A DNA stretch of 64,000 bases from an uncultured Acidobacteriota bacterium (GTDB taxonomy: Bacteria; Acidobacteriota; Vicinamibacteria; Fen-336): the NCBI GenBank assembly GCA_963720545.1, contig OY970399.1, positions 3,347,022 to 3,411,021 of the forward strand. The letters run 5' to 3'. This document shows positions 4,118 to 57,928 of this stretch, piece by piece. Every line of letters starts with the position of its first letter. Position 1 is the first letter of the stretch. Both the position numbers and the translations under genes were made by a program. The notes beneath the pieces are model-generated. The model was not told the DNA's origin and did not search any database. It saw nothing but the letters and a program-made list of their open reading frames with translations.

Positions 4118-5302
4118 ATGAAGAAGACCCTCGCGCCCCCGCGCGCCTTCGCAACCCGCGCTGTCCACGGCAGCAGGATGCCGGCCTCCGGCCCGCTGGC
4201 GACCCCCATCGTGCAGTCGTCCACCTTCGTATTCGAGTCGTCCGCGCAGATGCGCGACTACCTGCACGGCGATCCCGCGCTGCACCTCTACACGCGCTAT
4301 TCGAACCCCACGCTCGCGGCACTCGAGGAATCGCTCGCGCAGCTCGAGGGCGGGGAAGGGGCCATTGTCTTTTCGTCGGGGCTCGCCGCGATGACCACTG
4401 CGCTGTGGTCGACGCTCTCGGCGGGCGACGAAGTGCTCGCGAGCTCGTCGCTCTACGGCGGCACCACCAAGTTCATCCGCAAGATACTGCCGCGCTTCGG
4501 CGTCGCGCACCGGATCGTGCCGGTCGCCGAGATGAGCCGCCTCGAGAGCTATCTCTCACCGAACAGCAAGGTGGTGGTGCTGGAGTCGCCGACCAACCCC
4601 AACGTGGACATCGTGGACATCGCGGCGGTGGCGCGCGCCGCGCACGCCCGCGGCGCCCTGGTGATCGTAGACAACACCTTCGCGACGCCTTTCAACCAGC
4701 GGCCGCTCGAGCTCGGCGCCGACCTCGTCATGCACAGCCTGACCAAGGCGCTCTCGGGGCACAGCGACATCATCGCCGGCGCGCTCATCGGCTCGGCCGC
4801 GCACCTCGAGCCGGCGCGCGAGCACCTGAAGGTGCTGGGCGGTTGCATGGATCCGCACGCCGCGTATCTCGCGCTGCGCGGCCTCAAGACCGTGCACCTG
4901 CGCGCCGCGCGCCAGGCGGAGAACGCAATGGCCGTGGTGCAGGCGCTCGCCGGGCACCCGAAGCTGTCGCGGGTCCTCTATCCCGGCCTGCCGTCGCACC
5001 CGGGCCACGCGATCGCGAAGCGGCAGATGGCGACCTTCGGCTCGATGTTCGCGCTGTCGTTGCGCGGCGGCCTGGCGGCTGCCGAGAAGTGCTACGACGC
5101 GCTCGAGCTCGTGGGCCGGGCGGCGAGCCTCGGCGGCGTCGAGTCGATCGTCAGCCTGCCGGTGCACACGTCGCACCACGGATATTCGGACGAGGAGCTG
5201 GCACAGGCCGGCGTCGATGCCGGCATGATGCGCTTCTCGATGGGCGTCGAGGACGCGCGCGACATCGCCGCCGACATCGAACAGGCGCTGGACGCTTCGT
5301 AA
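4118..5302 (+). CDS. Cys/Met-metabolism PLP-dependent enzyme (cystathionine gamma-synthase / gamma-lyase family)
   Basis: 394 aa from ATG 4118. PLP-lysine motif SLTKALSGHSD and family-typical N-terminal region (TRAVHG...PIVQSSTF). The N-terminal 365 aa of track ORF 3023..5302 are Arg/Ala-rich low complexity and are rejected. Confidence 0.8.
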   Translation: MKKTLAPPRAFATRAVHGSRMPASGPLATPIVQSSTFVFESSAQMRDYLHGDPALHLYTRYSNPTLAALEESLAQLEGGEGAIVFSSGLAAMTTALWSTLSAGDEVLASSSLYGGTTKFIRKILPRFGVAHRIVPVAEMSRLESYLSPNSKVVVLESPTNPNVDIVDIAAVARAAHARGALVIVDNTFATPFNQRPLELGADLVMHSLTKALSGHSDIIAGALIGSAAHLEPAREHLKVLGGCMDPHAAYLALRGLKTVHLRAARQAENAMAVVQALAGHPKLSRVLYPGLPSHPGHAIAKRQMATFGSMFALSLRGGLAAAEKCYDALELVGRAASLGGVESIVSLPVHTSHHGYSDEELAQAGVDAGMMRFSMGVEDARDIAADIEQALDAS

Positions 5303-6954: not shown

Positions 6955-6972
6955 ACTGCGTCCGGACGCAGT
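6955..6972 (+). terminator. Terminator-like palindrome ACTGCGTCCGGACGCAGT 5 nt after the S10 peptidase stop (no T-tract)
   Basis: Perfect 18-nt palindrome seen directly; the lack of a U-tract makes intrinsic-terminator assignment tentative. Confidence 0.4.
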
Positions 6973-17194: not shown

Positions 17195-19288
17195 ATGCCT
17201 TCTCGCCGCCGGGCGCCGGTGCCCCCCGAAACCGCCGTCGAACCACGAGTTCCACCGGAACAGCCGCGCCTCGCGCCGGCCCTTGCCGACACGGTCTTCC
17301 AGATCACCAGCGACTACGAGCCCAAGGGCGACCAGCCGGCGGCCATCGAGGAGCTGGTGAAGGGCCTGGAGCGAAACGACAAGCACCAGTGCCTGCTGGG
17401 CGTCACCGGCAGCGGCAAGACCTTCACGGTCGCCTCGGTGCTGGCCCGCGTCAACCGGCCGGCGCTGGTGCTCGCGCACAACAAGACCCTGGCGGCGCAG
17501 CTCTACCAGGAGTTCAAGACCTTCTTCCCGAAGAACGCGGTCGAGTATTTCGTCTCCTACTACGACTACTACCAACCGGAGGCGTACGTGCCGCAGTCGG
17601 ACACGTACATCGACAAGGAATCCACGATCAACGAAGAAATCGACCGCATGCGACTGTCGGCCACGCGCAGCATCTTCGAGCGGCGCGACGTCGTCATCGT
17701 GGCGTCGGTGTCGTGCATCTACGGCCTCGGCTCGCCCGAGGCGTACTACGGCATGCTGTTGTTCCTGCGCCAGGGCGACTGGCTCGACCGGCGCGAGATC
17801 CTCGCCAAGCTGGTCGAGGCGCGCTACGACCGCAACGACTACGAGCTGAAGCGCGGCACCTTCCGCGTGCGCGGCGACGTGATCGAGATCGTGCCCGCCT
17901 ACGAAGAGGTCGGCATCCGCGTCGAGCTGTACGGCGACGAAATCGAGAAAATCAGCTCGTTCGACCCGCTCACCGGCAAGGCGCTCGACCGGCTGTCACA
18001 GGTGGCCATCTACCCGTCGAGCCACTACGTGACGCCCCGGCCGCGGCTGCAGGACGCCATCAAGCACATCGAGGAAGAGCTGATCGCCAACAAGGCGCGG
18101 CTCGAGCGCGACGGCCGGCTGCTGGAGGCCCAGCGCCTCTACCAGCGGACCATGTTCGACCTCGAGCTGCTGCGCGAGGTGGGGCACTGCCACGGCATCG
18201 AGAACTATTCGCGGCACCTTTCCGGGCGGAAGGAGGGCGAGCCGCCGCCGACGCTGCTCGACTACCTGCCGAAGGACGCGCTCATCATCGTGGACGAGAG
18301 CCACCAGAGCATCCCGCAGGTGCGCGGCATGTACCACGGCGACCGCGCGCGCAAGTCGACGCTCGTCGAATACGGCTTCCGGCTGCCGTCGGCGCTCGAC
18401 AACCGCCCGCTCAACTTCGAGGAGTTCGAGGCGCGGGTGGGGCAGTCGATCTACGTCTCGGCGACGCCGGGCGCCTACGAGCTGCAGAAGACGGCGGGCG
18501 TGGTGGTGGAGCAGGTCATCCGCCCCACCGGGCTCATGGACCCGCGCGTAGACGTGCGGCCGGTCACCGGGCAAGTGGACGACCTGCTCGCCGAGATCCG
18601 CCTGCGCGTGGCGCGCAACGAGCGCGTGCTGGTCACCACACTCACCAAGCGCATGGCCGAGGACCTCACCGAGTACTACCACGACCTCGGCGTGCGCGTG
18701 CGCTACCTGCACTCCGACATCGAAACGCTGGAGCGCGTGCAGATCCTGCGCGACCTGCGCAAGGGCGAGTTCGACGTGCTCGTGGGCATCAACCTGCTGC
18801 GCGAAGGGCTCGACCTGCCGGAGGTGTCGCTGGTCGCCATCCTCGACGCCGACAAGGAAGGCTTCCTGCGGTCGGGCGGCTCGCTCATCCAGACGATGGG
18901 CCGCGCCGCTCGCAACGTCGAGGGCATGGCCATCCTCTACGCCGACGTGATGACCGCTTCGATGAAGGCGGCCATGGAAGAAACCGCGCGCCGCCGCGTC
19001 ATCCAGGAGACGTACAACGCCGAGCACGGCATCACGCCGCAGTCGATCAAGAAGAGCATCAAGGACGTGCTGAACTCGGTGTTCGAGGCCGACTACGTCA
19101 CCGTGCCCGCGGACGACGACGGCAAGGACGACGACGACGCGTATCGCTCGATGGACGAGCTGGAGAAGGAAATCGCCCGAGTGGAGAAAGCAATGCGGGC
19201 TGCCGCCAAGGCCTTGGAGTACGAGAAAGCCGCCGAATTGCGCGACCGCATCCGCAGGCTGCGCACCACGGAAGTGGGCCTGCGCTAG
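17195..19288 (+). CDS. uvrB: Excinuclease ABC subunit B
   Basis: Helicase motifs ([13 protein letters not shown]), beta-hairpin region [14 protein letters not shown]-terminal UvrB/UvrC interaction domain. Start taken at ATG 17195 rather than track start 17147. Confidence 0.95.
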
Positions 19289-19373
19289 TCATCGACGGAT
19301 TGGCGGTCGTTCCCGTCCAATCCGTCGATTTCCGTTAGGCCGTTTCCCAGGCGCTTGCGTCAGCGTCCGTTCC
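19289..19373 (+). repeat. Repeat element copy 1: hairpin ATCGACGGATTGG-N13-CCAATCCGTCGAT (19291-19329) plus module CCCAGGCGCTTGCGTCAGCGTCCGTTCC (19346-19373)
   Basis: Perfect 13-bp inverted repeat starting 2 nt after the uvrB stop; the 28-nt module is identical to the reverse-strand copy at 36971-36998. Confidence 0.85.
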
Positions 19374-19634
19374 GATCTCCTGCTCCTGTGGCCGGCGAGT
19401 GGTCCTCCGCGCGGGACGTTCGGGCTCAGTGGAAAAATGTCCGCGCACTTCCCGCCAGTCGTCCGCTGCCACTGTGGCAATTGGTAACGCAACTGCGTCC
19501 GGACGCTGTTGGTTACCGAATGTAGCGCTCAAGGCGGAGCCCTGGGCAGCAGCACAAGCGTTCCGTCCTCGGGGAAACTTTTGCAGCAAACCGGGTTTGC
19601 CTGGGAGCAGTCTCTTCCTAGTAGGAGGTTCAAC

Positions 19635-34331: not shown

Positions 34332-35968
34332 TGTTCCTCGCCGCCGCGGCCGCCGGCACGGCGCAGGGCGGCGACCGCGAGCAGGGCCGCTCGCTGGTGA
34401 TGAGCAAGGGCGGCATCGTCGCGAGCGAGCACCCGCTCGCGTCGCAGGCAGGTGCCGCGATCCTGGCGAACGGCGGCAACGCCATCGACGCGGCGGTCGC
34501 GGCGAACGCTGTGATGGGCCTGGTGGCGCCAATGAGCAACGGCATCGGCGGCGACCTGTTCGCGATCGTCTACGACGCGAAGACGAAGAAGACCTACGGC
34601 CTGAACGCGAGCGGCTGGGCGCCGAAGGGGCAGTCGCGCGATCGCCTCGCGGCGGCGGGCCACAAGGAAATGCCCGCGGACGGGATCGAGACGGTGACGG
34701 TGCCGGGCGCGGTGGACGGCTGGAGCAAGCTGCTGGCGCGCTTCGGCACGCAGCCGCTCGCCGCGGTGCTGGCGCCGGCGATCCGCATTGCCGACGACGG
34801 GTTCCCGGTGAGCGAGTGGGTGGCCGCGAACTGGCAAGGCCACGACAAGATCCTCAAAGGCAACGCCCTTGCGTTGTACGTGCCGGGTGGCAAGGTGCCA
34901 GGCGTCGGCGACGTGTTTCGCAACCCCGACCTCGCGAACTCGCTGCGCGCCATCGCGAAGGGCGGCCGCGATGCCTACTACAAGGGCGCCATCGCGCAGG
35001 CGATCGTCGCCGAGTCGCAGGCGCACCACGGCACCATGGACGCGGCCGACCTCGCCGAGTACGAGAGCGAGTGGGTGGAGCCGATCAGCACCACGTACCG
35101 CGGCTGGACCGTTTACGAGATTCCGCCGAACACGCAGGGCATTGCAGCTCTCGTGATGCTCAACATGATGGAAGGCATGCCGCTTGCGCAGTGGGGGCAC
35201 AACTCCGCGCGCACGCTGCACAACCTCATCGAAGCGAAGAAGCTCGCGTACGCCGACATGATCCGCTACGTCGGCGATCCGCGAATGGCGGCAGTGCCAT
35301 CCGCCGGGCTGCTTTCCAAGGAGTACGCGGCGGGCCGCGCCAGACTCATCGACCCGGCGAAGGCGGCGGCAGCCGCGACCGCCGGCAGCGTGCGCGTCGG
35401 CAACGACACGATCTACCTCGCCACCGTGGACGGCGCCGGCAACATGGTGTCGCTGATCCAGAGCAACTACGAGAGCTACGGCTTTGGCTCAGGTCTGGTG
35501 GCGGCCGGCACCGGCTTCTGCCTGCACAACCGCGGCGCCTTGTTCACGCTCGACGCGCACAGCCCGAACGTGATCGCACCGCGCAAGCGGCCGCTGCACA
35601 CCATCATTCCCGCGATGATGGAACGCGGCGAGGAGCGCATCGGCTTCGGCATCATGGGCGGCTACAACCAGGCACAGGCGCACGCGCAGTTCGTCTCGAA
35701 CATCGTCGACCATGGCATGAACATCCAGGCGGCGATGGAAGCGGCGCGCTTCAACAAGTCCACGTTCGATGGGCTCGACGTGCAGATCGAGGACCGCGTC
35801 GCGCCTGAAGCGAAGGCCGAGCTCACACGCCTCGGCCACCAGATCACGTGGCGCCACGGCTTCTCCTCGAACATGGGCGGCGGCCAGGCGGTGATGCGCA
35901 ACTACAAGACCGGCGTCAACTCCGGCGCCTCCGACCCCCGCAAAGACGGCGCCGCCATCCCCCAGTAA
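34271..35968 (+). CDS. ggt: Gamma-glutamyltransferase, secreted
   Basis: GGT family motifs and autoprocessing-site region (TIYLATVDGAGNMVS); start chosen at ATG 34271 to include an Arg-rich signal peptide, which puts 61 bp inside the hpnE 3' end; alternative start ATG 34331. Confidence 0.8.
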   Translation: MDMEPGSRIRTRSRSRALGVMFLAAAAAGTAQGGDREQGRSLVMSKGGIVASEHPLASQAGAAILANGGNAIDAAVAANAVMGLVAPMSNGIGGDLFAIVYDAKTKKTYGLNASGWAPKGQSRDRLAAAGHKEMPADGIETVTVPGAVDGWSKLLARFGTQPLAAVLAPAIRIADDGFPVSEWVAANWQGHDKILKGNALALYVPGGKVPGVGDVFRNPDLANSLRAIAKGGRDAYYKGAIAQAIVAESQAHHGTMDAADLAEYESEWVEPISTTYRGWTVYEIPPNTQGIAALVMLNMMEGMPLAQWGHNSARTLHNLIEAKKLAYADMIRYVGDPRMAAVPSAGLLSKEYAAGRARLIDPAKAAAAATAGSVRVGNDTIYLATVDGAGNMVSLIQSNYESYGFGSGLVAAGTGFCLHNRGALFTLDAHSPNVIAPRKRPLHTIIPAMMERGEERIGFGIMGGYNQAQAHAQFVSNIVDHGMNIQAAMEAARFNKSTFDGLDVQIEDRVAPEAKAELTRLGHQITWRHGFSSNMGGGQAVMRNYKTGVNSGASDPRKDGAAIPQ

Positions 35969-36084
35969 TCGACGGATTGGCTTGTCCGTCCCCGTCCAAT
36001 CCGTCGATTTCCTGCTTGAGGTGTCGCACGGTGCAGCGAAAGTTCCCTCGGTCGCAGCGCAAGCGTTGAGCTCCTCGGGAAAAC
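35968..36084 (+). repeat. Repeat element copy 2: hairpin (35968-36008) plus module GCAGCGCAAGCGTT...CTCCTCGGGAAAAC (36054-36084)
   Basis: Same 13-bp arms as copy 1; the first base is shared with the ggt stop codon; the second module matches 19562-19591. Confidence 0.85.
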
Positions 36085-36086
36085 GG

Positions 36087-36953
36087 TTAGTCGATGCGGG
36101 CGACTCCGGGGGCGGTGGCGGGGAAGCGGTCGAAGATTGCGGGGTCGTGGCCGGGAACGATCCGGCGCCGGTCCTCGACGAGCTTCCCCATCCGGCTCTG
36201 CGCTTCCAGGTTGGCGGCGGCATCGAAGGTCTCGCCGATCGCGAGGTGGTTTTCCAGATTCTCGTAGAGATACGCGTTGTCGGAAGCGATCAGGACCGGG
36301 CCGACACGCGTGCCGACGGTCGCGTACTGGGAGGCGAAGGTGTGCCGCCCGCCGGTGTACACGCGGATCCCCGGGATGATCTCCTTGTCGTCGCCGTCCA
36401 CGAGCGTCACGCGCCCCGCGGCGCTGAGCTTCGCGAGCATCGCGGCGTCCACGGCCGACATGTCGTCGTGCAGCGCTTCGCCCTTTGCGCCGACGTAGTA
36501 CTCGTACTCGGCGCGCTGGATCCAGATGTGCGCGTTCGGGAACAGGTCGGCGCCGTCGAGATGGTCCCAATGCACGTGCGAGACGATGATGTCGGTGACG
36601 GCCTCCGGCGCAATTCCCGCGGCCGCAACGGCGTCGGACGGCTTGCGATAGTCGGCGGGTTTCCACGCCTTCATGAACTCGTCGCGGTAGAAGCCGGCGT
36701 CCACCAGCACGTTGCGCTTCTCCGGACCCTTCAGCAGCCACACCATCATCGCGCCGTCGCTCTTGCGGCTCGGGTCGGCGCCCGCCACGAGCTCGGAGGT
36801 CGGGAACCCGAGCAGCATGCCGTAGCGAACCGCGTACACCTCGTAGACAGGCGGAGCCGCCGCCACGGGCTGGGCGGCGGGCCGCTGCGCTTTGCAGGCT
36901 GGGAGCAGGGCGAATGCTAGCGGCAAGGCGAACACGAGGGTGGTCTTGGGCAT
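36087..36953 (-). CDS. MBL-fold metallo-hydrolase lipoprotein
   Basis: Lipobox LLPAC; metallo-beta-lactamase motif HVHWDH; start taken at ATG 36953. Confidence 0.75.
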   Translation of the reverse strand: MPKTTLVFALPLAFALLPACKAQRPAAQPVAAAPPVYEVYAVRYGMLLGFPTSELVAGADPSRKSDGAMMVWLLKGPEKRNVLVDAGFYRDEFMKAWKPADYRKPSDAVAAAGIAPEAVTDIIVSHVHWDHLDGADLFPNAHIWIQRAEYEYYVGAKGEALHDDMSAVDAAMLAKLSAAGRVTLVDGDDKEIIPGIRVYTGGRHTFASQYATVGTRVGPVLIASDNAYLYENLENHLAIGETFDAAANLEAQSRMGKLVEDRRRIVPGHDPAIFDRFPATAPGVARID

Positions 36954-36970
36954 GCGGGAGTTTAGACAAA

Positions 36971-37056
36971 GGAACGGACGCTGACGCAAGCGCCTGGGGG
37001 GACGACAAGAACGGCAATCGACGGATTGGACGGGGACGGAGAGCCAATCCGTCGAT
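36971..37056 (-). repeat. Repeat element copy 3 (reverse orientation): hairpin 37017-37056 plus 28-nt module 36971-36998
   Basis: Hairpin ends 6 nt after the def stop on the minus strand; the module is the exact reverse complement of 19346-19373. Confidence 0.85.
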
Positions 37057-37061
37057 GACAG

Positions 37062-37583
37062 TTACACGAACCGTTCGAATTCGTTGAGGAACGCGAGCGA
37101 GCGCATATCGCGCATGCGGTCGAGGTAGACGCTGCCGTCGAGGTGGTCGCACTCGTGCTGGATGACGCGGGCGAAGAAGGTGTCGGTTTCGACGACGTAC
37201 TTCCTGCCCTTGCGGTCGCGGGCTTCCATGCGCACCTTGCGGAAGCGGGGGACGACGCCGCGCAGGTCGGGGATCGACAAACAGCCTTCGAAACCGTCCA
37301 GCAGTTCGTCGCCGACCGCGGTCACCACCGGGTTGATGAGCACGGTCAGGGGCACCGCGTCCTCGGCACGCTCGTCACTCGCGTCGACCTCGATGACTGC
37401 GAGGCGCAAGCCCTCGTGAACCTGCGGCCCGGCGAGGCCGACGCCTTCGTATTCGTGCATGGTCTCGACCATGTCGTCGATGAGGCGCTGGATGCGCGGC
37501 GTGCGGATCTCGTCCACTTCCAGGTTGCGCGCCGCCTTGCGGATGACGGGATGGCCGATGCGAGCGACTTTCAGGATCGCCAA
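37062..37583 (-). CDS. def: Peptide deformylase
   Basis: TTG start preceded by AAGGAG gives MAILKVARIGHPVIRK; motifs GVGLAGPQV, EGCLSIP, HECDHLDG. Confidence 0.85.
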   Translation of the reverse strand: MAILKVARIGHPVIRKAARNLEVDEIRTPRIQRLIDDMVETMHEYEGVGLAGPQVHEGLRLAVIEVDASDERAEDAVPLTVLINPVVTAVGDELLDGFEGCLSIPDLRGVVPRFRKVRMEARDRKGRKYVVETDTFFARVIQHECDHLDGSVYLDRMRDMRSLAFLNEFERFV

Positions 37584-37596
37584 AGGCAGCTCCTTG

Positions 37597-38286
37597 CTAG
37601 TGGTCCCTGATGAAGCGGGCGAGGCCCGCGAGGTCGGTGACGCGCGCATACGGACGGCGTCGCGGCGCGCGGTGCGCGCCGCGGTCGAGCCATACGAAGC
37701 GCACGCCGGCGCCGTGCGCGGCGTCGCCGTCGGTCGTCGGGTTGTCGCCGATGAAGATCGCATCCGCGGCGCGCGCGCCGATGCGTCGCAGCGCCTCGAT
37801 GACGATGCGCGGGTCGGGCTTGGTGAAGCCGCAGCCTTCCGAGGTGACGACGGTGTGGAAGCGGTCGCGCAGCCCGGCGAGGCGCAGCCGCGAGCGCTGC
37901 ACGCGGTCGATGCCGTTGGTGACGATCGCGAGGCGATGCCGCTTCGCCGCCACGGCCAGCACCCGCAGGCAGCCCGGCAGCATGTCGGCGCGCGCCGCCA
38001 GCGAGGTGAGGTAGACGCGCGAAAAACGGCGGGCGAGCCGCGGCTCGCGGCCGAGCGCGACCGCAAGGCGGCGGAAGCGTTCGTGCGACAGCTCGGCCTG
38101 GCCGATGCGGCCCTTCTCGTACTCGCGCCAGATCACGGCGTTGATGGCGCGATAGGCCGCGAGCGCGCGCGGGCCGAAGGGGATGCCCATGGCGCGAAAC
38201 GCCTCTGCCAGCGCAAGCCGCTGGGAGCGCTCGAAGTCGAAGAGCGTCTCGTCGAGGTCGAAGAGGAGGGCGGAACGCGGCGCCAA
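37597..38286 (-). CDS. HAD-superfamily hydrolase
   Basis: Motif I LLFDLDETLFD; HAD-like C-terminal motifs (FIGDNPTTD). Confidence 0.7.
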   Translation of the reverse strand: MAPRSALLFDLDETLFDFERSQRLALAEAFRAMGIPFGPRALAAYRAINAVIWREYEKGRIGQAELSHERFRRLAVALGREPRLARRFSRVYLTSLAARADMLPGCLRVLAVAAKRHRLAIVTNGIDRVQRSRLRLAGLRDRFHTVVTSEGCGFTKPDPRIVIEALRRIGARAADAIFIGDNPTTDGDAAHGAGVRFVWLDRGAHRAPRRRPYARVTDLAGLARFIRDH

Positions 38287-38290
38287 GGGG

Positions 38291-38509
38291 CTACTTGGCG
38301 CGGTAGGTGATGAGGCCGCGCTTCAGGTCGTAAGGGGAGACGCTGACGGTCACCCGGTCGCCGGCGATGACGCGGATGCGGAACTGCCGCATCTTGCCGT
38401 TCAGCCGTGCGAGCACTTCATGGTTCTCGCCGCACTTGATCTTGTAGTTGCCGCCCGCGAGAACTTCCGACACGACGCCTTGCAGCTCGATGAGGTCGTC
38501 TTTGGCCAA
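38291..38509 (-). CDS. infA: Translation initiation factor IF-1
   Basis: 72 aa, S1-like fold, near-canonical IF-1 sequence. Confidence 0.9.
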   Translation of the reverse strand: MAKDDLIELQGVVSEVLAGGNYKIKCGENHEVLARLNGKMRQFRIRVIAGDRVTVSVSPYDLKRGLITYRAK

Positions 38510-38565
38510 TCGACTCCTTTGCCGTTAACTGCAGGGGATAGTAGCAGGAACGCCCCGGGCCTGCC

Positions 38566-39405
38566 TCACTTGCCGGTCTTGCGGAAGTCGACGAAGCCCT
38601 TGCGGGTCTCGGGCTGGCAGTTGGGGCAGAAGTACGCGTCCATGCCCGCAACCCCCGCCACGCGCAGCCGGGCTCCGCACGTGGGACAGACCTCCTTCAG
38701 GCGCACCTTGAGGAAGTCGCGAACCTTGACTTCGGTGGGTTCGCCGCGGCGCGCCACTTCCGCAACCGCTTCGCGCATCACCGAAACGATCGCCGTATGC
38801 AGCCGCTCGGCGTCGGCTGGTTGCAGCGAGCGGCACCAGGTCTTGGGATGGATGCCCGCCGCGAACAGGATCTCGTCCGCGTAGGCGTTGCCGATGCTGT
38901 CGAGGGCGCGCTTGTCGAGCAGGAACACGCGCACCTGGTCGCGGCGGTGTTGCAGCAGGCTCTGCAGCCGCTCGCGCGTGAACGCCGGCGAGAGGATGTC
39001 GACGCCGCCCGTCTTCATTCCGGGGATCGCGTTCCAGTCGTCCTGGGCGATGAGGTATGCCTTGCCCATCGACTTGTCGTCGAGATAACGCAGCTCGTCG
39101 CGTCCCGCGCCGAAGCCGAGCGCGAACCCAAGCGACTTCTCGTCCCTGGCATCGGGCGGCGACAGGCGGAAGCGGCCCGCGAGCATCGGGTTCACGGCGA
39201 GGTCGAGCCCCGCGAAGCGCAGCACAACGAAGTGCGAGCGCCGCGAGACCGACTCGAGCGTGCGGCCAAGGAGCAGCGACAGGTTGCCGCGCACGGTGAA
39301 GCGCATGATGACGGGGCTTCGCACCCGCTCGCTTTGCACCACCGCTCCGCGCAGCGCTCCGTCGAGCCGCGCGACGATGTGCAGCAGGTCGGGCAGTTCG
39401 GGCAC
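38566..39405 (-). CDS. Formamidopyrimidine-DNA glycosylase / endonuclease VIII family (Fpg/Nei)
   Basis: N-terminal MPELPD (catalytic Pro2/Glu3); C-terminal zinc finger CPTCG...CPNC. Confidence 0.8.
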   Translation of the reverse strand: MPELPDLLHIVARLDGALRGAVVQSERVRSPVIMRFTVRGNLSLLLGRTLESVSRRSHFVVLRFAGLDLAVNPMLAGRFRLSPPDARDEKSLGFALGFGAGRDELRYLDDKSMGKAYLIAQDDWNAIPGMKTGGVDILSPAFTRERLQSLLQHRRDQVRVFLLDKRALDSIGNAYADEILFAAGIHPKTWCRSLQPADAERLHTAIVSVMREAVAEVARRGEPTEVKVRDFLKVRLKEVCPTCGARLRVAGVAGMDAYFCPNCQPETRKGFVDFRKTGK

Positions 39406-39407
39406 GA

Positions 39408-40631
39408 CTAGACTTTATCGGCTCCGCTGGCCCGTGGCAGGTACGTTTCGAGCACCGCCTCGATGGCGCGCTGTTCGGGCGAATCCTTGTCGAAGGGGCG
39501 GAACGGTGTTGCGGCGATCGGGCAGGAGCCCGCGTCGAGATGCCGCGTCACCAGCGCCGCGAAGCGCGCCAGCGCCCCCGTCACCAGCGCCGCATCGGTG
39601 CGGCCGTGGGCGCAGTAGCCGTGGCCGCGCATGAACCCGGCGATCTCGTGGACGTTCGCGATTTCGCTGGCGCGCACGGTGCCCGCTTCCAGCCGCGCGA
39701 TGAGCGCCGCCATGTTGGTTGCGCCCACGCTGCAAGGCGGGCACTGGCCGCACGACTCGCGCGCGAAGAAGTCCGCGGCCGACGACACCACCGACAACGG
39801 GCACGCCTGTTCGCACACCACCAGGACCGACGCGGTGCCGAGCGACGAGCCGCGTTCGCGCAACGCCTCGGGCTCGAGCGGCGTGTCGAGGTCGTTGGCG
39901 TCGAGCGGCGCCGCCGACGGTCCGCCCGGGAACACGGCAACCACGACGCCGGTGGCGCCGCCGCCCCAGTCCTCGATCAGCTCGCGCAGCTTGGTGCCGA
40001 GCGGCACGTCATAGACCCCGGGGCGCTTGACGTGGCCCCACAGCGAAACCAGCGTCGACTCCTCGTTGATGAACGCTTCCGGATCGGCGAGGGCGCGCGG
40101 CACGTAGCTGAGCGTCTCGACGTTCTGCACCAACGTCGGCCGTCCGGAGACGCCGGCAGCCGAGGGCAGCGGCGGCTTGGCGCGCGGCCAGGCCTTGTTG
40201 CCCGAGAGCCACTCGCTGACGGCCGTTTCCTCACCGCCGACGTAGGAGTCGTCGCCGCGGCGCACCGTGATCGCGACGCCAGCCGTGTCGATGCGCTCGA
40301 GTTGCTTCACGAGGTTCGCCTCGAGCGCCACGAACGAGCCCTTCAGGTAGACGACCGCCTCACGCGCGCCAATCGCCTTGGCGGCGGCCAGGATGCCGTC
40401 GCACACGTCCTTGAAGCGGGTCAGAAGGATGAAGCGGTCCTTGATCGAGCCGGGCTCGCCTTCGGCGCCGTTTGCCACCACCAGCGCGTCGCCGTCCTCG
40501 GCGAGCACCGCCTGCCACTTGCGCCAGGCAGGAAACCAGCCGCCGCCGCGGCCGCGCAAGGCCGACGACGCGATCCTGTCGATCGCGGCGAAGGGGGTCT
40601 TCTTCGGCGCGCCGCCTGAGGGTTCTGGCAC
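39408..40631 (-). CDS. NuoF-like NADH-binding FMN/4Fe-4S flavoprotein (stand-alone complex I 51-kDa subunit homolog)
   Basis: Motifs [31 protein letters not shown]; no other nuo genes in the window. Confidence 0.7.
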
Positions 40632-40770
40632 GTTCGTTCCGGCGAGGATTATAGGGGAATCCCCTCATTCCACGGTGTTGGCGGGCATACGTCCGCATGC
40701 GGCGCTGCGCTATACTCGATGGGCGGCGCCGGACAGTCTCGTAAGGCTTCGCAGAGCGGGGTCAATCGAA

Positions 40771-41133
40771 ATGATTCAGATTACGGACAATGCCTTGTCG
40801 AAGGTCAAGGGGATCCTCGAGCAGGAAAAGGACTCCATGCCCGGCGGCGGCCTGCGCATCTACGTGCAGGGCGGCGGCTGCTCCGGCTTTCAGTACGGCA
40901 TGGTCCTGGACGAGGTCGCGGAAGGCGACCAGGTGTTCGACAAGGACGGCATCAAGGTCATCGTCGACGCCATGAGCGCGCGCTATCTCGAGGGCGCCGA
41001 GGTGGACTACAAGGACGATCTGATGGGCGGCGGGTTCGCCATCAAGAACCCGAACGCGGTTTCCACTTGCGGCTGCGGGCACTCGTTCCAGACCGCCGAC
41101 GGCGGCGGCACGCAGGGCGGCCACCAGCACTGA
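40771..41133 (+). CDS. Iron-sulfur cluster insertion protein (IscA/ErpA/HesB family)
   Basis: 120 aa from ATG 40771; motifs GGGCSGFQY and CGCGHSF. Confidence 0.8.
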
Positions 41134-41165
41134 GGTCTTTGGACAACCCGGAGACGAACGCCAAA

Positions 41166-41654
41166 ATGACCGCGAGCGAAGCGCTGGGGGAAGTAGATGC
41201 CGTGCCGCAGCAAGGGCTGAGGACGTTCCGGGTCATCAACGACACCGTGCGCCTCGTCACCGACAAGCGGCTCGAGCTCTACAACCTCACCGAGCGCGTC
41301 GGCGAGATCATCAAGAAGCACGACATCAAGGAAGGCCTGGTGTTGTTCTCGTCGCTGCACACGACGCTCGCTCTCTTCGTCAACGAGTGGCAGTCGGCGC
41401 TGCTGCACGACATGAAGTTCATGCTCAACAAGGTCGTGAGCCCGGGCGAGGAATACCGCCACAACGACCCCGAGCAATCCGACTGCGACCGCAAGAACGC
41501 GCATTCGCACCTGCAGGCAACCCTGCTCAACCACGCGGTGCAGTTTCCGGTGGCCGCCGGCAAGCTCGTCATCGGGCAGTTCCAGGCCATCATCGCCGCT
41601 GAGCTCGACGGGCCGCGCCACCGCGACCTCGCCGTCCAGATCATCGGCCGCTAG
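41166..41654 (+). CDS. YjbQ family protein (UPF0047)
   Basis: 162 aa from ATG 41166; family-typical length and core (FVNEWQSALLHDM...HSHLQATLL). Confidence 0.7.
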   Translation: MTASEALGEVDAVPQQGLRTFRVINDTVRLVTDKRLELYNLTERVGEIIKKHDIKEGLVLFSSLHTTLALFVNEWQSALLHDMKFMLNKVVSPGEEYRHNDPEQSDCDRKNAHSHLQATLLNHAVQFPVAAGKLVIGQFQAIIAAELDGPRHRDLAVQIIGR

Positions 41655-41676
41655 CCACCCGCAACCGCCTCGCGCG

Positions 41677-42336
41677 GTGCTACGCTCGGAGGAGGCTCCT
41701 GAAATGGCCGTCCTGCCGCCGATCATTCCCCTGTTCCCCCTGGGAGAGGTGGTCCTCTTCCCGAAGGTGGCGCTGCCACTGCACATCTTCGAGCCGCGTT
41801 ACCGGAAGATGACCGCCGACGCCCTCGCCGGCGAGCGCATCATCGGCATGACGCTGCTGCAGGCGGGCTTCGAGGCGAGCTACGTCGGCCGCCCGCCGGT
41901 TTTTCCGCTCGGCTGCGCCGGCCACATCGAAGAGACCGAGGCCCTGCCCGACGGCCGCTACAACATGCTGCTGCGCGGCGTGTCGCGCTTTCGCATCGTC
42001 GAGGAGCGCCACGGGCAGCCCTACCGGCTGGCGGCGATCGAAGAAGTGGAAGACGGCCGCTACGATGCCGCGCGCGTGGGTGCGATGCGCGACAAGATCC
42101 TGAACGCGGTGTCGGCGGCGTCGCCGCGGCCAACGCTGCTGGTGGTGCAGCCCGACGTGAGCGACGAGCTGTTCCTCAACACGCTGTGCCAGATGCTGCC
42201 GTTCGATGTGGTGGAAAAGCTCTCGCTCCTCGAATGCGACAGCCTCGGCCAGCGTTGCGACCGGCTCCTGGAACTCCTCGAGTACAAACGACTCACCGGC
42301 AACCTCGCCTCGGGCCGGGTCGAACGGCCTAACTAG
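41677..42336 (+). CDS. Lon N-terminal (substrate-binding) domain protein
   Basis: LON-N type N-terminus (IPLFPLGEVVLFPKVALPLHIFEPRY); no AAA+ or protease domain; start may be ATG 41704. Confidence 0.7.
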   Translation: MLRSEEAPEMAVLPPIIPLFPLGEVVLFPKVALPLHIFEPRYRKMTADALAGERIIGMTLLQAGFEASYVGRPPVFPLGCAGHIEETEALPDGRYNMLLRGVSRFRIVEERHGQPYRLAAIEEVEDGRYDAARVGAMRDKILNAVSAASPRPTLLVVQPDVSDELFLNTLCQMLPFDVVEKLSLLECDSLGQRCDRLLELLEYKRLTGNLASGRVERPN

Positions 42337-42378
42337 TCATCGGCGGATGGGCTTGCCGTTCACGACCCATCCGCCGAT
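42337..42378 (+). repeat. Repeat element copy 4, variant hairpin ATCGGCGGATGGG-N14-CCCATCCGCCGAT
   Basis: Starts 3 nt after the Lon-N gene stop; differs from the main type at paired positions on both arms. Confidence 0.8.
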
Positions 42379-42429
42379 TACGACTTTCGGCGCGGGTGCC
42401 TCGTCTAACGACAGGAGAGTGGAGGTCAA

Positions 42430-43503
42430 ATGAAGGGAGTCAACCGTTTCGGCCTGGTTCTGGGGGTTCTGGCGGCGAGCGCCCTGCTTGGCACCGCTGC
42501 AGCCCGCGTGCGGGCGGCAGACGAGCAGGAGAAGCCGAAGGCCAGCGTGAAGACATCGCGCGAAGAGACGATGAAGCGGTTCAAGGTCGGGCCGCAGGTG
42601 CGCCGCATCGAGCGCAGCTTCGAGTGGACGGACGGCGCCTTCCTCGGCGTCGGCGTCGCCGACGTCACCAAAGCCGACCTCGCAGCGCTGAAGCTGAGCG
42701 AAGAGCGCGGCGCTGTAGTGCGCAGCGTCAACGCCAATTCCGCCGCAGCCAAGGCGGGGCTGAAGGAGGGCGACGTCATCCTGCGCTATCAGGGCGAGAC
42801 GGTCTGGAGCGCTTCGCAGTTCCGCCGCCTCATCCGCGAGACGCCGGCTGGCCGCACCATCTCGCTCGACGTGACGAACGGCGGCGCGGCGCGCACCGTT
42901 GCGGCGACGCTCGGCGAGCGCTCGCCGGACACGGCCGGGTTCGGGCCGCTCGAAGACTTCGACATCGACCTGCCTGGAATGATCGCGGGCGAGATGCCCG
43001 AGCCGCCGGAACCGCCCGAAGCTCTCGAACCACCGGATGCACCGGATGCACCGGATGCACCTGATGCTCCGCGTGCCCCGCGTGCCCCGCGTGCCCCGCG
43101 GCCGCCACGGATCATGGCGGACCGGATGTTCCACTTCAAGATGCCGGACGGCGGCAACATGATGTGGCGCGGTGGAATGTTCGCAGGCGAACCGCGCAAG
43201 CTCGGCCTCGAGTACCAGTCGGTCAGCGGCCAGCTCGCGAAGTACTTCAAGTTGGCGGGCGATGGCATCCTGGTGACGAACGTCGCAGCCGACGGTCCGG
43301 CGGCGGCGGGAGGCGTGAAAGCCGGCGACGTCATCATGAAGGTGAACGGCAAGGCCGTCACGGACGGCGGCGACCTGCGCGAGGCCATGGAGTCGGTCGA
43401 GCCCGGCCAGGAAGTGAGCCTCACCCTGCAGCGCGACGGCAGCCCGGTCGAGGTGAAGCTGAAGGCCGGTGGCGCCGCGGGGCGCGGCGCAATCACCACC
43501 TAG
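42430..43503 (+). CDS. Secreted protein with two PDZ domains and a Pro-rich repeat linker
   Basis: Signal peptide; PDZ-like segments (GAVVRSVNANSAAAKAGLKEGDVIL and GILVTNVAADGPAAAGGVKAGDVIM); linker PEPPEPPEALEPPDAPDAPDAPDAPRAPRAPRAP. Confidence 0.7.
   Translation: MKGVNRFGLVLGVLAASALLGTAAARVRAADEQEKPKASVKTSREETMKRFKVGPQVRRIERSFEWTDGAFLGVGVADVTKADLAALKLSEERGAVVRSVNANSAAAKAGLKEGDVILRYQGETVWSASQFRRLIRETPAGRTISLDVTNGGAARTVAATLGERSPDTAGFGPLEDFDIDLPGMIAGEMPEPPEPPEALEPPDAPDAPDAPDAPRAPRAPRAPRPPRIMADRMFHFKMPDGGNMMWRGGMFAGEPRKLGLEYQSVSGQLAKYFKLAGDGILVTNVAADGPAAAGGVKAGDVIMKVNGKAVTDGGDLREAMESVEPGQEVSLTLQRDGSPVEVKLKAGGAAGRGAITT
43032..43100 (+). repeat. Tandem 9-bp repeats (ACCGGATGC x3-4, CCCGCGTGC x3) inside the PDZ protein gene
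   Basis: Direct tandem repeats seen in sequence, encoding (PDA)n and (PRA)n. Confidence 0.8.
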
Positions 43504-43512
43504 GCAGACCGC

Positions 43513-44247
43513 CTAGAGGACGTCAGTACCGTCTTCCATCTCCAGCACCAGCAGGGTGCCGGCCACCGAGAGGGCCGGCGCCAGCAGGAAGGCGCCAAGC
43601 GGCACCAGGAAGATGAGGATGCCCGCGAGGCCGAAGCCGAGCGTCTCGGGGCGCAGGCGTTTGTGCCAGGCGCGGCGCGCGGCGAAGTCGAGGCCGCGGC
43701 GCGTCAGCGGCGCGTCGGTCTGTTGCAGCGCCAGCGCCTGCGAGGCCCAGAGCGCTGCCAGGAACGGTCCCACAACCGGTATCAGCGGGATGGGCAGCGT
43801 GACAAGCGCGGCTGCCAGGAAGAACAAGGCTCCCTTCACGGCCTGCATCGCCTCCCAGCCCGCTCCGTGGCTGCGGTCGATGACGTGGCCGCGCACCAGC
43901 TGCTCCACCCGGCGCGACAAGCGCTCCAGGACCGGCGCCGCCAGCAGCAGGGCCGACGCCAGCCCCACCACCATGCCGGCCGCGACCAGGCCGATCCAGA
44001 GGAGAGCGGTGAGCGGCAGGTGCAGCAGGCCCGGCAGCGATCGTGAAATGAGCAGCGGCTCGAGCCGCGGGGCGATGAACAGGCCGAGGATGCCGCCAAG
44101 GCCCCAGAAGAGCACGGCCAGTACCGCGGGCAGCGCCGCCAGCGGCCACGTGCCCGGGTGACGCACGAGGAACGCGATCCCGGCGAGCACCTGCCACGCG
44201 CCGGCGGCGATGCGCCTGGGCCAGCCGGGCAGGGAGGGCATGGCCAT
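43513..44247 (-). CDS. Multi-pass membrane protein (EI24/CysZ-like, tentative)
   Basis: 244 aa from ATG 44247; ~6 hydrophobic helices; family assignment from overall topology only. Confidence 0.5.
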   Translation of the reverse strand: MAMPSLPGWPRRIAAGAWQVLAGIAFLVRHPGTWPLAALPAVLAVLFWGLGGILGLFIAPRLEPLLISRSLPGLLHLPLTALLWIGLVAAGMVVGLASALLLAAPVLERLSRRVEQLVRGHVIDRSHGAGWEAMQAVKGALFFLAAALVTLPIPLIPVVGPFLAALWASQALALQQTDAPLTRRGLDFAARRAWHKRLRPETLGFGLAGILIFLVPLGAFLLAPALSVAGTLLVLEMEDGTDVL

Positions 44248-44271
44248 GAGGCTAAGGCCCCGTCTTCCCGT

Positions 44272-45129
44272 GTCAAAATCCGGCGCGGAGGCGATCCCTT
44301 GAATATCGGTTGGCTGCACCCGGTCGTCGTGCATTTCGCAATCGTCCTGGTCCTCGTCGGCGTGCTGTTCCGCCTGCTGTCGCTCGCGAGCAGCAGCCGC
44401 CTGTCTTTCGCGAGCCCGGCCGCAACCACGCTGATCCTCGCGGGCGCCGTCGCCGTGTTCTTCGCGTCGCAGTCCGGCCGCGATGCCCATGGGCCGGTGG
44501 AACGCGTGCCCGACTCGCGCGAAGTGGTGGAGCTGCACGAGGCCGCGGCCAAGTGGAGCACCAACTTCACCTACGCCCTGGCGCTCATCGAGGTGGGGCT
44601 GCTGTTCCTGCGCAACTCGCGCTACCGCCGCCATGCGCTGATCGCGGCGTCGGTGGTCGGCCTGTTCGCCGGATCGACGATGATCCTGACCGCGTGGCGC
44701 GGCGGGAACCTCGTCTACGCGCACGCGGGCGGCGTCGGCATCCGTTCCGGGGAATCGGCGGACGTGGGCAACCTGCTGCTCGCCGGCCTCTACCATCAGG
44801 CGCTGCAGGACCGCGAAGCGGGCCGGCGGCAGGAGGCGGCGGCGCTCGCCGACCTCGCGCTGCGCCGCTTCCCGTCGAGCATCGCGGTGCGCATGTTCCA
44901 CGCCGAATCGATCCTGCTCGACCGCCAGGACCCGTCGGCAACGCTCGCGGCCCTGGGCACGATCACGGTGCCGCCGGGCGAGGGCCGCGAGGTCGCTTAC
45001 GGGCTGCTGAAGGTCGATGCGCTGCAGGCTGCGGGCCGGCCCGGGGAAGCGCAGGCCGAACTGGACAGGCTCGCGAAGGAGTTCCCGACGAGCGGTCGGA
45101 TCAAGGCCCGCCTCGGCAGGGGCCGTTAG
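44272..45129 (+). CDS. Membrane protein (DUF2231-like N-terminal 4-TM domain) with C-terminal TPR-like region
   Basis: HPVVVHFAIVL motif at the first TM; TPR-like helical C-terminus; start uncertain (GTG 44272 or TTG 44299). Confidence 0.45.
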   Translation, partial: VKIRRGGDPLNIGWLHPVVVHFAIVLVLVGVLFRLLSLASSSRLSFASPAATTLILAGAVAVFFASQSGRDAHGPVERVPDSREVVELHEAAAKWSTNFTYALALIEVGLLFLRNSRYRRHALIAASVVGLFAGSTMILTAWRGGNLVYAHAGGVGIRSGESADVGNLLLAGLYHQALQDREAGRRQEAAALADLALRRFPSSIAVRMFHAESILLDRQDPSATLAALGTITVPPGEGREVAYGLLKVDALQAAGRPGEAQAELDRLAKEFPTSGRIKARLGRGR

Positions 45130-45440
45130 CCGCGAATCTTCTCGATCCTGCTGTCGCGGTCGCTCGCGAAGCGTTCCTTGTCGCGGCGATACTCGTCGTT
45201 CAGCGTCTCCAGCTCCTCAGGCGTGCGCGCCCGCACCTGTGCGTCGCGGAACAGGATCTCGCGTTCGGCCATGCGCGCCTCGTAAATGCTGCGCGCTTCC
45301 GCGATGTCGTGGCGCTGCGCGTCGCTCAGCGCCTTGCTGACCACACCAGCGTCGGCATCCTGCTTCTTCAGGCGGGCCATCGCGAGCTCGAGTGCGCTCT
45401 TGGGCGCGTCGTCTTCCGGTTCGGCTTCGTCCTTGCTCAT
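45126..45440 (-). CDS. Hypothetical small acidic coiled-coil protein
   Basis: 104-aa ORF, charged/helical; no recognised family. Confidence 0.4.
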   Translation of the reverse strand: MSKDEAEPEDDAPKSALELAMARLKKQDADAGVVSKALSDAQRHDIAEARSIYEARMAEREILFRDAQVRARTPEELETLNDEYRRDKERFASDRDSRIEKIRG

Positions 45441-45457
45441 GCCGGCAGTGTAGCCCC

Positions 45458-46186
45458 CTACAGGCGGCTGGCGAAGAACCGGCGCAGCGGTTCGATGAGC
45501 GCCTCGGGGTCGTCGGCCAGGATGTTCTCGGCGTGCAGCCCGCCCGGGATCACGACCAGCTCCTTCGGTTCGGTGGCGAGCGCGTAGAGGTCGTGCGCGT
45601 GTTTCACCGGGATCAGCCAGTCGTCGCTGCCGTGGACGATCAGCAGTGGGGCGACGATCTGCGCGATCAGCCGGCGCGGCGAGGTGCCGCGCAGCGGCGG
45701 GCGCAGCGACACGCGCGCCGGGCGGCGCTCGCGGCGCAGCATGATGGGCACGCTGCGCGTCAGGCCGCGGATGAAGGGGTTGTGGTCGAGCAGGAACAGG
45801 CTCTTCGGCGCGGCCACCAGCGCCACCGCGTCGAAGTTGGCGCCCTGCGCCGCGGCCGCGACGGTGTGATAGCCGCCGTAGGAGAAGCCGAGCGCGCCGA
45901 CGCGCGCGTAGCGCTCGTGCGCCCAGGCGGCGACCCTTTGCAGGTCGTGCGGCTCCTTGCGGCCCCAGCTGAAACGGCCCGCCGACTCGCCGTGGCCGCG
46001 CACGTCCATGGTGATGACGTCGGCGAGGTCGGCAAGCGCGCGCGCGAGGCGCAGGTGCTCGGGGCTCTCGCGGTGCATGAAGATGCCCGGTACCACCACG
46101 ATGGCGGCTTCCCGGCCGCTGCCGCGGACCGTGAGACGCAGGCTGGTGCCGTCGTCGGCTGCGAGCGTTTCAGACCGCGAGTTCAC
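45458..46186 (-). CDS. Alpha/beta hydrolase fold protein
   Basis: Nucleophile elbow GFSYGG; His/Asp region (HGSDDWLIP); 242 aa. Confidence 0.75.
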   Translation of the reverse strand: MNSRSETLAADDGTSLRLTVRGSGREAAIVVVPGIFMHRESPEHLRLARALADLADVITMDVRGHGESAGRFSWGRKEPHDLQRVAAWAHERYARVGALGFSYGGYHTVAAAAQGANFDAVALVAAPKSLFLLDHNPFIRGLTRSVPIMLRRERRPARVSLRPPLRGTSPRRLIAQIVAPLLIVHGSDDWLIPVKHAHDLYALATEPKELVVIPGGLHAENILADDPEALIEPLRRFFASRL

Positions 46187-47603: not shown

Positions 47604-47627
47604 CGCGGGAATATAATCCTTCGCGGG

Positions 47628-49868: not shown

Positions 49869-50581
49869 TCAACCTCTCGGTCAATGGCCGCCGTCGCGCC
49901 TTCTCGGGGCCGCCGTGGAAGCGCCTCCTCGACGTGCTGCGCGAAGACTTCGCGCTGACGGGCACCAAGGAGGGCTGCGGCGAAGGCGAGTGCGGTGCCT
50001 GCACCGTGCTCATAGACGGCGCCCCGGTGAACAGCTGCCTGATCCCCGCCTGCCAGGTCGCCGGCCAGCGCGTCGAGACGATCGAAAGCCTTGGCCGCCC
50101 CGCGGCGCTGAGCGTCTTGCAAGAACGCTTCCTCGCGATGGGCGGCGCGCAGTGCGGCATCTGCACCCCGGGCATGCTGATGGCCGCCTGGGCCCACGTC
50201 AAAGCCGGCGGCTCCGCTTCCCCCGACGCTGTTCGCGAGCAACTGGCCGGCAACCTCTGCCGCTGCACCGGCTATCAGGCGATTGTGGATGCTGTTATTG
50301 AGACGATTCGTCTTGAGACGATTCGAAAATCGCTAAAGCGAATCGTCTCAATTCCGGGCCAGAGGTCCGTTGCCGCTCCCAGGAAGAAGTCCGTCCGTCC
50401 TCCCAGGAAGAAATCCGTTCGTTCTCCCAAGAAGAGAGCGGCGCCGCTTTCCAGGAAAAGGACCGTCGCGTCCGCCACAAAGAAATCAGCAGCGCCTGAC
50501 AAACGGAAATCTCGTCCTCGGAGGAAGTCCGTTGTCAGGTCAGCTATGTCTCCGAAGACGAGAAGCGTGAAGACGAGATAA
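49865..50581 (+). CDS. Xanthine dehydrogenase family [2Fe-2S] small subunit with Lys/Arg/Ser-rich C-terminal repeat tail
   Basis: GTG start overlapping the large-subunit stop; two 2Fe-2S motifs (CGEGECGACTV and CGICTPG...CRCTGY); ~75 extra C-terminal residues PRKKSVRPPRKKSVRSPKKRAAP.... Confidence 0.8.
   Translation: MINLSVNGRRRAFSGPPWKRLLDVLREDFALTGTKEGCGEGECGACTVLIDGAPVNSCLIPACQVAGQRVETIESLGRPAALSVLQERFLAMGGAQCGICTPGMLMAAWAHVKAGGSASPDAVREQLAGNLCRCTGYQAIVDAVIETIRLETIRKSLKRIVSIPGQRSVAAPRKKSVRPPRKKSVRSPKKRAAPLSRKRTVASATKKSAAPDKRKSRPRRKSVVRSAMSPKTRSVKTR
50298..50475 (+). repeat. Lower-GC repeat block inside the small-subunit 3' region: TTGAGACGATTCG direct and inverted copies (50298-50351) and ~24-bp tandem repeats (50377-50475)
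   Basis: Perfect 13-bp inverted repeat 50313-50325 / 50339-50351, an extra direct copy at 50298-50310, then degenerate CTCCCAGGAAGAAGTCCGTCCGTC-type tandem units. Confidence 0.8.
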
Positions 50582-50582
50582 C

Positions 50583-53572: not shown

Positions 53573-53576
53573 GGGC

Positions 53577-57728: not shown

Positions 57729-57732
57729 TCGT

Positions 57733-57821: not shown

Positions 57822-57928
57822 GGTGGCCGTTTCCTGACGGTCACTTGCGGCGCGCAGGACCACTCGCCGGCCGCTATCGAGCTACGGCGCTCAGACACAG
57901 TAGCAGAGATCCGGACGGTACGGCCGAT

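Follow-up and report, generated by a model that had tools for sequence, protein, structure and literature searches.

Oriented hairpin repeats of REP-like character stand directly behind stop codons in a genome of the Vicinamibacteria

The DNA studied here is a window of 64,000 nucleotides from an uncultured member of the Acidobacteriota (contig OY970399.1 of assembly GCA_963720545.1, positions 3,347,022 to 3,411,021). Its G+C content is 70%, the closest named relatives of its UvrB protein are Vicinamibacteria, and it encodes an ADOP permease, which is typical of Acidobacteria. Dispersed over the window are six hairpin elements, called c1 to c6 here, most of which directly follow a gene. The gene map was drawn from codon usage and the flanking genes were checked with NCBIfam and Pfam. 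An original prediction, made from the letters alone, had named these genes, and its assignments held: they encode UvrB, a gamma-glutamyltransferase (ggt), a peptide deformylase (def), a GNAT acetyltransferase and a protein with a Lon substrate-binding domain (Lon-N).

The same prediction had reported an inverted repeat with identical arms at four places and a variant of it at two more. Exact copies of the arm ATCGACGGATTGG, each with its reverse complement, are indeed found at 19291/19317, 35968/35996, 37017/37044 and 57961/57987, and the variant arm ATCGGCGGATGGG at 42339/42366 and at 57734. The variant copy starting at 57734 is present as listed, but its arm pair is not intact, the right arm having lost 1 nt. 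Arm matches with at most two mismatches number 12 in the window against 1.56 expected, a count that 0 of 100 shuffles reached, and a covariance model built on the 5′ tag, hairpin and tail recovers exactly six copies and no degenerate ones. A 28-nt module (hereafter M) that had been noted as identical behind c1 and, on the opposite strand, c3 is exact at both sites, and shuffles gave none. Two further 28-mers, unlisted until now, accompany c5 and c6 with 2 and 3 mismatches, respectively; M is present on four of the six hairpin copies in the window.

As had been claimed, five of the six copies lie at a stop codon and are oriented in the sense direction of the gene before them. The distance from stop codon to stem is 2 nt at uvrB, −1 nt at ggt (where TAA overlaps the first A of the c2 stem), 5 nt at def, 2 nt at Lon-N and 5 nt at the GNAT gene. 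With the window's intergenic DNA set by hand at ~5.5 kb, the probability that at least five of six copies would be so placed and oriented is ~8 × 10−7. The sixth copy, c6, has no stop codon before it; it is the inverted partner of c5, and its hairpin ends 17 nt before an ATG at 58017 on the opposite strand. At the other end of the def–lactonase gap, c3 ends 17 nt before the ATG of a metallo-β-lactamase (MBL)-fold, lactonase-like gene. Counted over the gaps of the window, the elements occupy none of 9 divergent, 4 of ~14 unidirectional and 1 of 2 convergent gaps, which is the placement of extragenic repeats of the REP (repetitive extragenic palindromic) type: unidirectional or convergent gaps, near the 3′ ends of open reading frames (ORFs), and no divergent ones. 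At all six independent stop-adjacent sites the stop codon is TAG or TAA and never TGA (P ~0.03), with TGA making up 43% of the stop codons in the window.

The conserved unit extends beyond the hairpin and 28-mer first described, since 19283–19374 and 57916–58007 are 91% complementary over 92 nt. In order, it consists of an unpaired 5′ tag (mostly NGTC), the hairpin, a TTCCGT tail, a linker, M and often two more modules, N and O (Table 1). The stem measures 13 bp and encloses a C/T-rich loop of 12–15 nt. The N module (GATCTSCTGCTMCTG) lies 3′ of M in c1, in c6 and in the L003b unit of the distant locus L003 described below, and the O module (GGCCGGCGAGTGGTCCT) lies 3′ of N in c1 and c6. Units occur as singletons, as tandem arrays and as an inverted doublet. 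Because the O module of c1 recurs at the centre of the c5/c6 doublet, c1 is suggested to be half of a former doublet. Where several M units are present they form a tandem repeat with a period of ~39 nt. M was also considered as a repeat independent of the hairpin and rejected in that role, as a profile hidden Markov model (HMM) of M finds significant units only beside hairpins.

Table 1. Coordinates, composition and setting of the hairpin elements in the window.
Feature	Position	Strand	Composition	Context	Covariance score (bits)
c1	19289–19389	+	tag TC	after uvrB stop TAG 19286–19288	75.5 (+ strand); 29.3 (− strand)
c1 hairpin	19291–19329	+	13-bp stem, 13-nt loop		
c1 tail and linker	between hairpin and M	+	TTTCCGTTAGGCCGTTT		
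c1 M 28-mer	19346–19373	+			
c1 N module	19374–19389	+	GATCTCCTGCTCCTGT		
O module	19390–19413	+	GGCCGGCGAGTGGTCCTCCGCGCG	recurs at centre of c5/c6 doublet (alignment)	
c2	35968–36008	+	hairpin only	ggt stop TAA 35966–35968 overlaps first stem base	67
c3	36971–37061	−	tag CTGTC	after def stop TAA 37062–37064 (minus strand)	78.1
c3 parts in order	hairpin 37017–37056; linker; M 28-mer 36971–36998	−			
c4	42337–42378	+	variant arms ATCGGCGGATGGG/CCCATCCGCCGAT; tag TC; hairpin 42339–42378	after Lon-N domain gene (+) stop TAG 42334–42336	71.1
c5	57729–57821	+	variant arms, 1-nt right-arm deletion	after GNAT stop TAG 57726–57728	57.7
c5 parts in order	tag; hairpin 57734–57770; linker; M 57794–57821	+	tag TCGTC; M with 2 mismatches		
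c6	57917–58007	−		inverted partner of c5; no stop codon before c6	75.7
c6 parts in minus-strand order	tag; hairpin 57961–57999; linker; M 57917–57944	−	tag CAGTC; M with 3 mismatches		
c5/c6 inverted doublet	57729–58007	.	tags outward; central O-like segment 57849–57872		

Each copy scores ~30–46 bits better on one strand than on the other under the covariance model, so the units are oriented. Pairing within the stem is strictly Watson–Crick. Of the 156 stem cells in 12 distinct units, 155 are paired; two stem positions have changed on both sides (A–T to G–C and T–A to G–C, in 3 of 12 rows), one-sided changes number 0, and a hand tally of 13 units, which includes a coding palindrome at 50313 that is not a family member, found no G–T pairs in the stems. 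In the same tally the tag is AGTC four times, CGTC three times (one of them the 50313 palindrome), TGTC once, GGTC once and something else in four units, with GTAG confined to the L003a unit. As DNA the hairpin folds with −16 to −18 kcal/mol (z of −4 to −6), and as RNA with −22 to −27 kcal/mol. Predicted folds outside the hairpin are little better than those of shuffles (z of ~−2) and are not common to the copies, and no covariation beyond the stem was seen among the aligned units. The c5/c6 doublet as a whole folds into a single imperfect hairpin of 285 nt (−153.8 kcal/mol, z = −7.3), which 0 of 200 shuffles equalled.

We compared the window with four assemblies of the same species (L022, L023, L024 and L026; ~94–97% nucleotide identity over well-assembled stretches) and with loci of three other Vicinamibacteria species (L020, L029 and L030; ~66 kb, UvrB 82–88% identical). 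Variation between the strains is greatest at the elements. The c1 element is also present in L023 and L024, and at this uvrB site L024 carries an additional 79-nt unit made up of linker, truncated M, CGTC tag and a hairpin with a c3-type loop; given that loop, more than a simple local duplication must have taken place. The def–lactonase gap holds four tandem M units (period ~39 nt) in L022 against one in the window, and the two also differ in the 5 nt that separate the stem from the stop codon. Behind ggt, L022 has the hairpin and two M units, whereas the window has the hairpin and an unrelated tail; behind the Lon-N gene, L022 has the canonical TTCCGT tail and ~40 nt that are absent from the window. 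In the related species L020 the uvrB site is empty: the UvrB C terminus is the same and the stop codon stands at the same position, with no hairpin behind it. No copy of the family was found in L020, L021, L029 or L030.

Further afield, an arm scan of species genomes returned one true locus, L003, in a metagenome-assembled genome. There an ExbD-like gene ends in TAG and, 2 nt further on, a tandem pair of units begins, which is followed by M and N and has 97% identity to c6. Short-read contigs seem to break at the repeat, which probably explains why metagenome contigs of the Joint Genome Institute (JGI) yielded no copy. One short-read contig (L005, 1–46) begins 7 nt before the c6 hairpin, and assemblies of these genomes are probably broken up by gene-end repeats. 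A uvrB stop codon lies 3 nt before the end of the contig behind L021. Viral contigs, plasmids and phages contained no match. Rfam gave 0 matches over the window at gathering thresholds, and for the c1 and c5/c6 regions, with E allowed up to 10, only sub-threshold matches at chance level.

Near-identical oriented copies behind unrelated housekeeping genes, strain-variable sites and an empty uvrB site support the part of the original prediction that saw a dispersed REP-like family rather than independently evolved terminators; its other label, miniature inverted-repeat transposable element (MITE), did not stand, for reasons given below. We probably have before us a family of the kind known as REPs, bacterial interspersed mosaic elements (BIMEs) and REPINs (paired REP units), closest to the REPs tagged with CGTC. 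We place it there because the units are oriented and stand behind unrelated genes, occur in singleton, tandem and doublet forms, keep to unidirectional and convergent gaps, change between strains and are restricted to a lineage. The family is young and lineage-restricted. The element had been put forward as undescribed, and this is correct for the sequence family, which is absent from Rfam, plasmids, phages and viral contigs; its kind is already well known from published REPs (PMC3733652). No new kind of system is revealed.

The closest described relatives are the CGTC-tagged REP superfamily (Di Nocera, De Gregorio & Rocco 2013, PMC3733652). In that survey the tag of a REP is an unpaired GTAG or CGTC, or a variant such as TGTC; the stems start with A–T and T–A pairs; REPs occupy gaps flanked by unidirectional or convergent ORFs, at under 20 bp from an ORF's 3′ end, and sometimes provide a TAG stop; and they form dimers and clusters and vary between strains (PMC3733652). 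The present units resemble these in having an unpaired terminal tetranucleotide (NGTC in general, with CGTC and TGTC among its variants), in the A–T/T–A opening of the stem and the short unpaired tail at the opposite end, in their location near ORF 3′ ends in unidirectional and convergent gaps, and in forming dimers and clusters that differ between strains and species. Acidobacteriota are not among the phyla with tagged REPs in PMC3733652, and the family is probably new for this phylum.

Several observations weigh against this assignment. The CGTC families 1–4 have stems of 8–9 bp, loops of 4–5 nt and frequent G–T pairs (PMC3733652), whereas the stem here is a perfect 13 bp and the loop has 12–15 nt. 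The tag is only loosely conserved, with GTC common and strict CGTC in the minority. Exact arms occur in just one other of the 185,579 species genomes scanned, and a further 9 kb of the same species (L026, 1–9140) contains no copy. The genes of the window and the annotated sister loci yielded no transposase domain, Y1 or other; for CGTC-type REPs no dedicated transposase is known (PMC3733652). The lack of G–T pairs offers no argument for selection at the level of RNA, and the tight spacing to stop codons could reflect a function instead of tolerance of insertions. Further differences from the CGTC REPs are the tail (TTCCGT here, CCA there), the commonest tag (AGTC here) and the regular fusion of the unit to a 39-nt M repeat. 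With its perfect 13-bp stem, 12–15-nt loop, different tail and M fusion, the family falls outside all four described CGTC families.

The REPs of Escherichia coli have imperfect stems with G–T pairs and are linked to a gene for a REP-associated tyrosine transposase (RAYT). As in E. coli REPs and BIMEs, the elements described here are mosaics of palindromic units and linker motifs at gene 3′ ends that form arrays of variable copy number; the sequences are unrelated, however, and the GTAG tag of E. coli is not that of the present family. A passage of PMC5082802 summarises mRNA stabilisation and transcription attenuation as RNA-level roles of E. coli REPs, and it cites Liang, Rudd & Deutscher (2015) for ribosome stalling with trans-translation where a REP lies within 15 nt of the stop codon. 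All five stop-adjacent copies fall inside that 15-nt distance.

The REPINs of Pseudomonas fluorescens (Bertels & Rainey 2011, PMC3116915; PMC3337134) consist of two inverted units and a spacer that form one long hairpin, as c5 and c6 do, and their singletons resemble remnants of doublets, to which c1 with the central O module of the doublet may be compared. In REPINs the doublet is the unit that replicates, and the repeats flank a RAYT gene. Here, by contrast, a single doublet is seen, it spans ~280 nt with its M modules against a typical ~100 nt, its c5 and c6 halves carry different arm variants, and no RAYT was identified in the loci examined. M taken by itself recalls the variable-number tandem repeats (VNTRs) of mycobacterial interspersed repetitive units (MIRUs), being an intercistronic tandem repeat of ~39 nt that is oriented with the flanking genes and whose copy number varies between strains (1 versus 4 in the def–lactonase gap). 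Unlike those, M is joined to a palindromic unit, is found only beside the hairpin and contains no small ORFs reaching into the stop and start codons on either side.

If the elements are REP-like, their units would have been spread and rearranged at the level of DNA, with the hairpin perhaps forming on single-stranded DNA and then being acted on in trans by a HUH/Y1 transposase of the RAYT type, or through recombination between copies. Copies would persist only where they do no harm, that is, in unidirectional or convergent gaps right behind a stop codon. Each copy would then be co-transcribed with its upstream gene as a stem–loop in the 3′ untranslated region (3′ UTR), with the RNA stability given above, and could protect the mRNA's 3′ end or attenuate read-through. 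By analogy with what is reported for E. coli REPs that lie at most 15 nt from a stop codon, the stem–loop may also couple to translation termination, because the stem begins inside the footprint of the terminating ribosome.

The position of the hairpins suggests another explanation, which we judge unlikely: that they are primarily selected terminators or 3′-end-forming stem–loops in a genome poor in terminators, spread by duplication, with their repeat character secondary. They are placed straight after stop codons in the sense orientation, as stem–loops containing G and C directly 3′ of coding regions, much as intrinsic terminators are; they are strong as RNA hairpins (−22 to −27 kcal/mol); and the tail, UUUCCGU, is somewhat rich in U. 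Canonical terminator-like sites between 35000 and 54999 were moreover rarer than in shuffles (6 versus 9.5 ± 2.9), so non-canonical 3′ hairpins may be needed there, and the lineage may make little use of classical intrinsic terminators. Yet the G+C-rich stem, short loop and U run that mark an intrinsic terminator are not found together in these elements, which have no U-tract, a loop of 12–15 nt and a stem only 0–5 nt past the stop codon. The same simple scan of 35000–54999 did not report c2, c3 or c4, the loop length and the lack of a T run being the reason. Nor does the setting fit easily: c3 lies in a 111-nt gap, 65 nt before the next co-directional gene, c4 lies 51 nt before the next start, and c6 stands behind no gene. 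Related species have no hairpin at the orthologous sites, copy number and attached modules vary between strains, and arms of 13 identical nucleotides at unrelated loci would not be expected of convergent selection.

We give somewhat less credence still to the proposal that the spacing of −1 to 5 nt betrays a specific mechanism, either insertion that homes on TAG and TAA or a translation-coupled 3′-end device serving as a general signal in a terminator-poor lineage. In the second version, formation of the hairpin, and with it the end or stabilisation of the transcript, would depend on the state of translation termination. The tight spacing to stop codons that are TAG or TAA only is the one feature that might reward experiments.

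A preference for TA or TAG also enters the MITE alternative, in which the 13-nt arms are terminal inverted repeats moved by a DDE transposase with such a target preference; this would bring copies to TAG and TAA stops in a genome so rich in G+C. It is improbable. The restriction of the six independent sites to TAG and TAA agrees with it, as do the TA or TAG found 0–5 nt upstream of every stop-adjacent copy and the direct-repeat-like motifs around hairpin and tail, TAGTC...TAG(T/G)C in c1, c6 and L003a and TCGTC...TCGTC in c5. Such repeats are missing, however, from c2, c4, L003b and L024b and from the L022 versions of c2, c3 and c4, and their right-hand motif is part of the recurring GTCCGT motif internal to the linker. 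Since no consistent target-site duplication flanks the copies, the MITE label fails. TAG is, besides, not a rare trinucleotide, with 415 occurrences on both strands of the window, of which only 22 serve as gene stop codons; the conserved unit is asymmetric and reaches well past the arms; and no transposase was found in the window or in the loci examined.

That the hairpin with M and N is a structured 3′-UTR RNA, or a family of small RNAs derived from 3′ UTRs, bound by a protein or ribonuclease and kept for regulation, would agree with the oriented ~100-nt unit and its conserved modules outside the hairpin, with the conserved C/T-rich loop and with co-transcription with the upstream gene (as the position suggests), but it is very improbable given that Rfam offers no family even at E up to 10, that folds outside the hairpin are weak (z ~−2) and not shared between copies, that covariation is confined to the stem, that M varies in number between strains and is missing from some copies, and that c6 runs antisense to whatever transcript could plausibly cover the 3′ end of an adjacent gene.

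Catalogues of REP-type repeats deal chiefly with Proteobacteria and a few other phyla, and a clean, young family in the Vicinamibacteria, abundant but poorly studied soil Acidobacteriota, widens this picture. Because every stop-adjacent copy lies at most 5 nt from its stop codon, the family offers a convenient natural system outside E. coli for studying how stop-proximal REP hairpins act, with effects on translation termination and on mRNA 3′ ends as the questions to ask. The elements could also serve as a strain-typing marker, as the number of M units and the hairpin arrays differ between strains of ~96–97% identity.

Other readings of individual segments were rejected. A possible seventh member at 50313–50351 shares the 13/13/13 geometry, a CGTC tag and a TTCCGG tail, but it belongs to the genuine, K/R-rich coding tail of a CoxS-like (2Fe–2S) protein, in a region conserved in strain L026, and gives no match to the covariance model. 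Within the ORF at 49865–50581, positions 50296–50351 form a perfect palindrome, TTGAGACGATTCG ... CGAATCGTCTCAA, with a 13-bp stem, a 13-nt loop and a tandemly duplicated left arm; the Fer2_2 domain of the protein ends at residue 144, its tail is encoded by repeats of ~24–27 nt (PRKKSVR), and relatives of the protein have basic tails of variable length. Recoding of the stop codon by an element akin to a pyrrolysine or selenocysteine insertion sequence (PYLIS or SECIS) was discarded for uvrB, where the orthologous protein in L020 ends at the same residue and the frame past TAG has ~60% G+C at third positions (hand count) against ~90% in genes. An integron attC site was likewise set aside, with core-site motifs absent and housekeeping genes on the flanks.

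In the minus-strand gap at 36950–36970, M ends 17 nt before the lactonase-like ATG at 36953, and the spacer TTTGTCTAAACTCCCGC lacks a Shine–Dalgarno sequence. This spacer is kept in L022 despite its four M units. With TAAACT in the spacer, a sequence similar to a −10 promoter element that stands 5 nt from the ATG, the lactonase-like transcript may be leaderless. A promoter for this gene inside M was considered and dropped, as a promoter scan reports none.

The region downstream of uvrB differs between genomes in other ways. Strains L023 (9697–9806) and L024 (2476–2584) hold a segment of ~110–130 nt at window position 19436–19439 that the window lacks; it lies in the same uvrB-downstream gap and is distinct from the hairpin unit. 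Where the species of the window has the hairpin element, the gap between uvrB and a lipoprotein gene in L020 (12177–12630) has a ParE-type toxin gene (weak Pfam match) and, upstream of it, a small gene that may encode the antitoxin. The collinearity of L026 with the window is lost past 54781, where L026 carries a different 9-kb segment with a FitA/PIN toxin–antitoxin pair, either a strain-specific island or a rearrangement breakpoint.

Two other repeats were seen close to gene ends. A second palindromic repeat, ACTGCGTCCGGACGCAGT, occurs at 6955–6972 and 19492–19509, with 0.08 copies expected by chance; the exact copy lies 4 nt past the TGA of an S10 peptidase-like gene, and the copy in the uvrB-downstream gap has one mismatch and is perfect in L023 and L024. 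A module designated T, CCCTCGGTCGCAGCGCAAGCGTTGAGCTCCTCGGG, is 97.6% identical between window positions 36044–36085 and positions 4213–4247 of the unrelated locus L003. It has a weak predicted fold and lies near the stop codon of a convergent gene on the opposite strand at both places (1 nt away in the window and ~10 nt in L003), and may be another stop-proximal repeat module.

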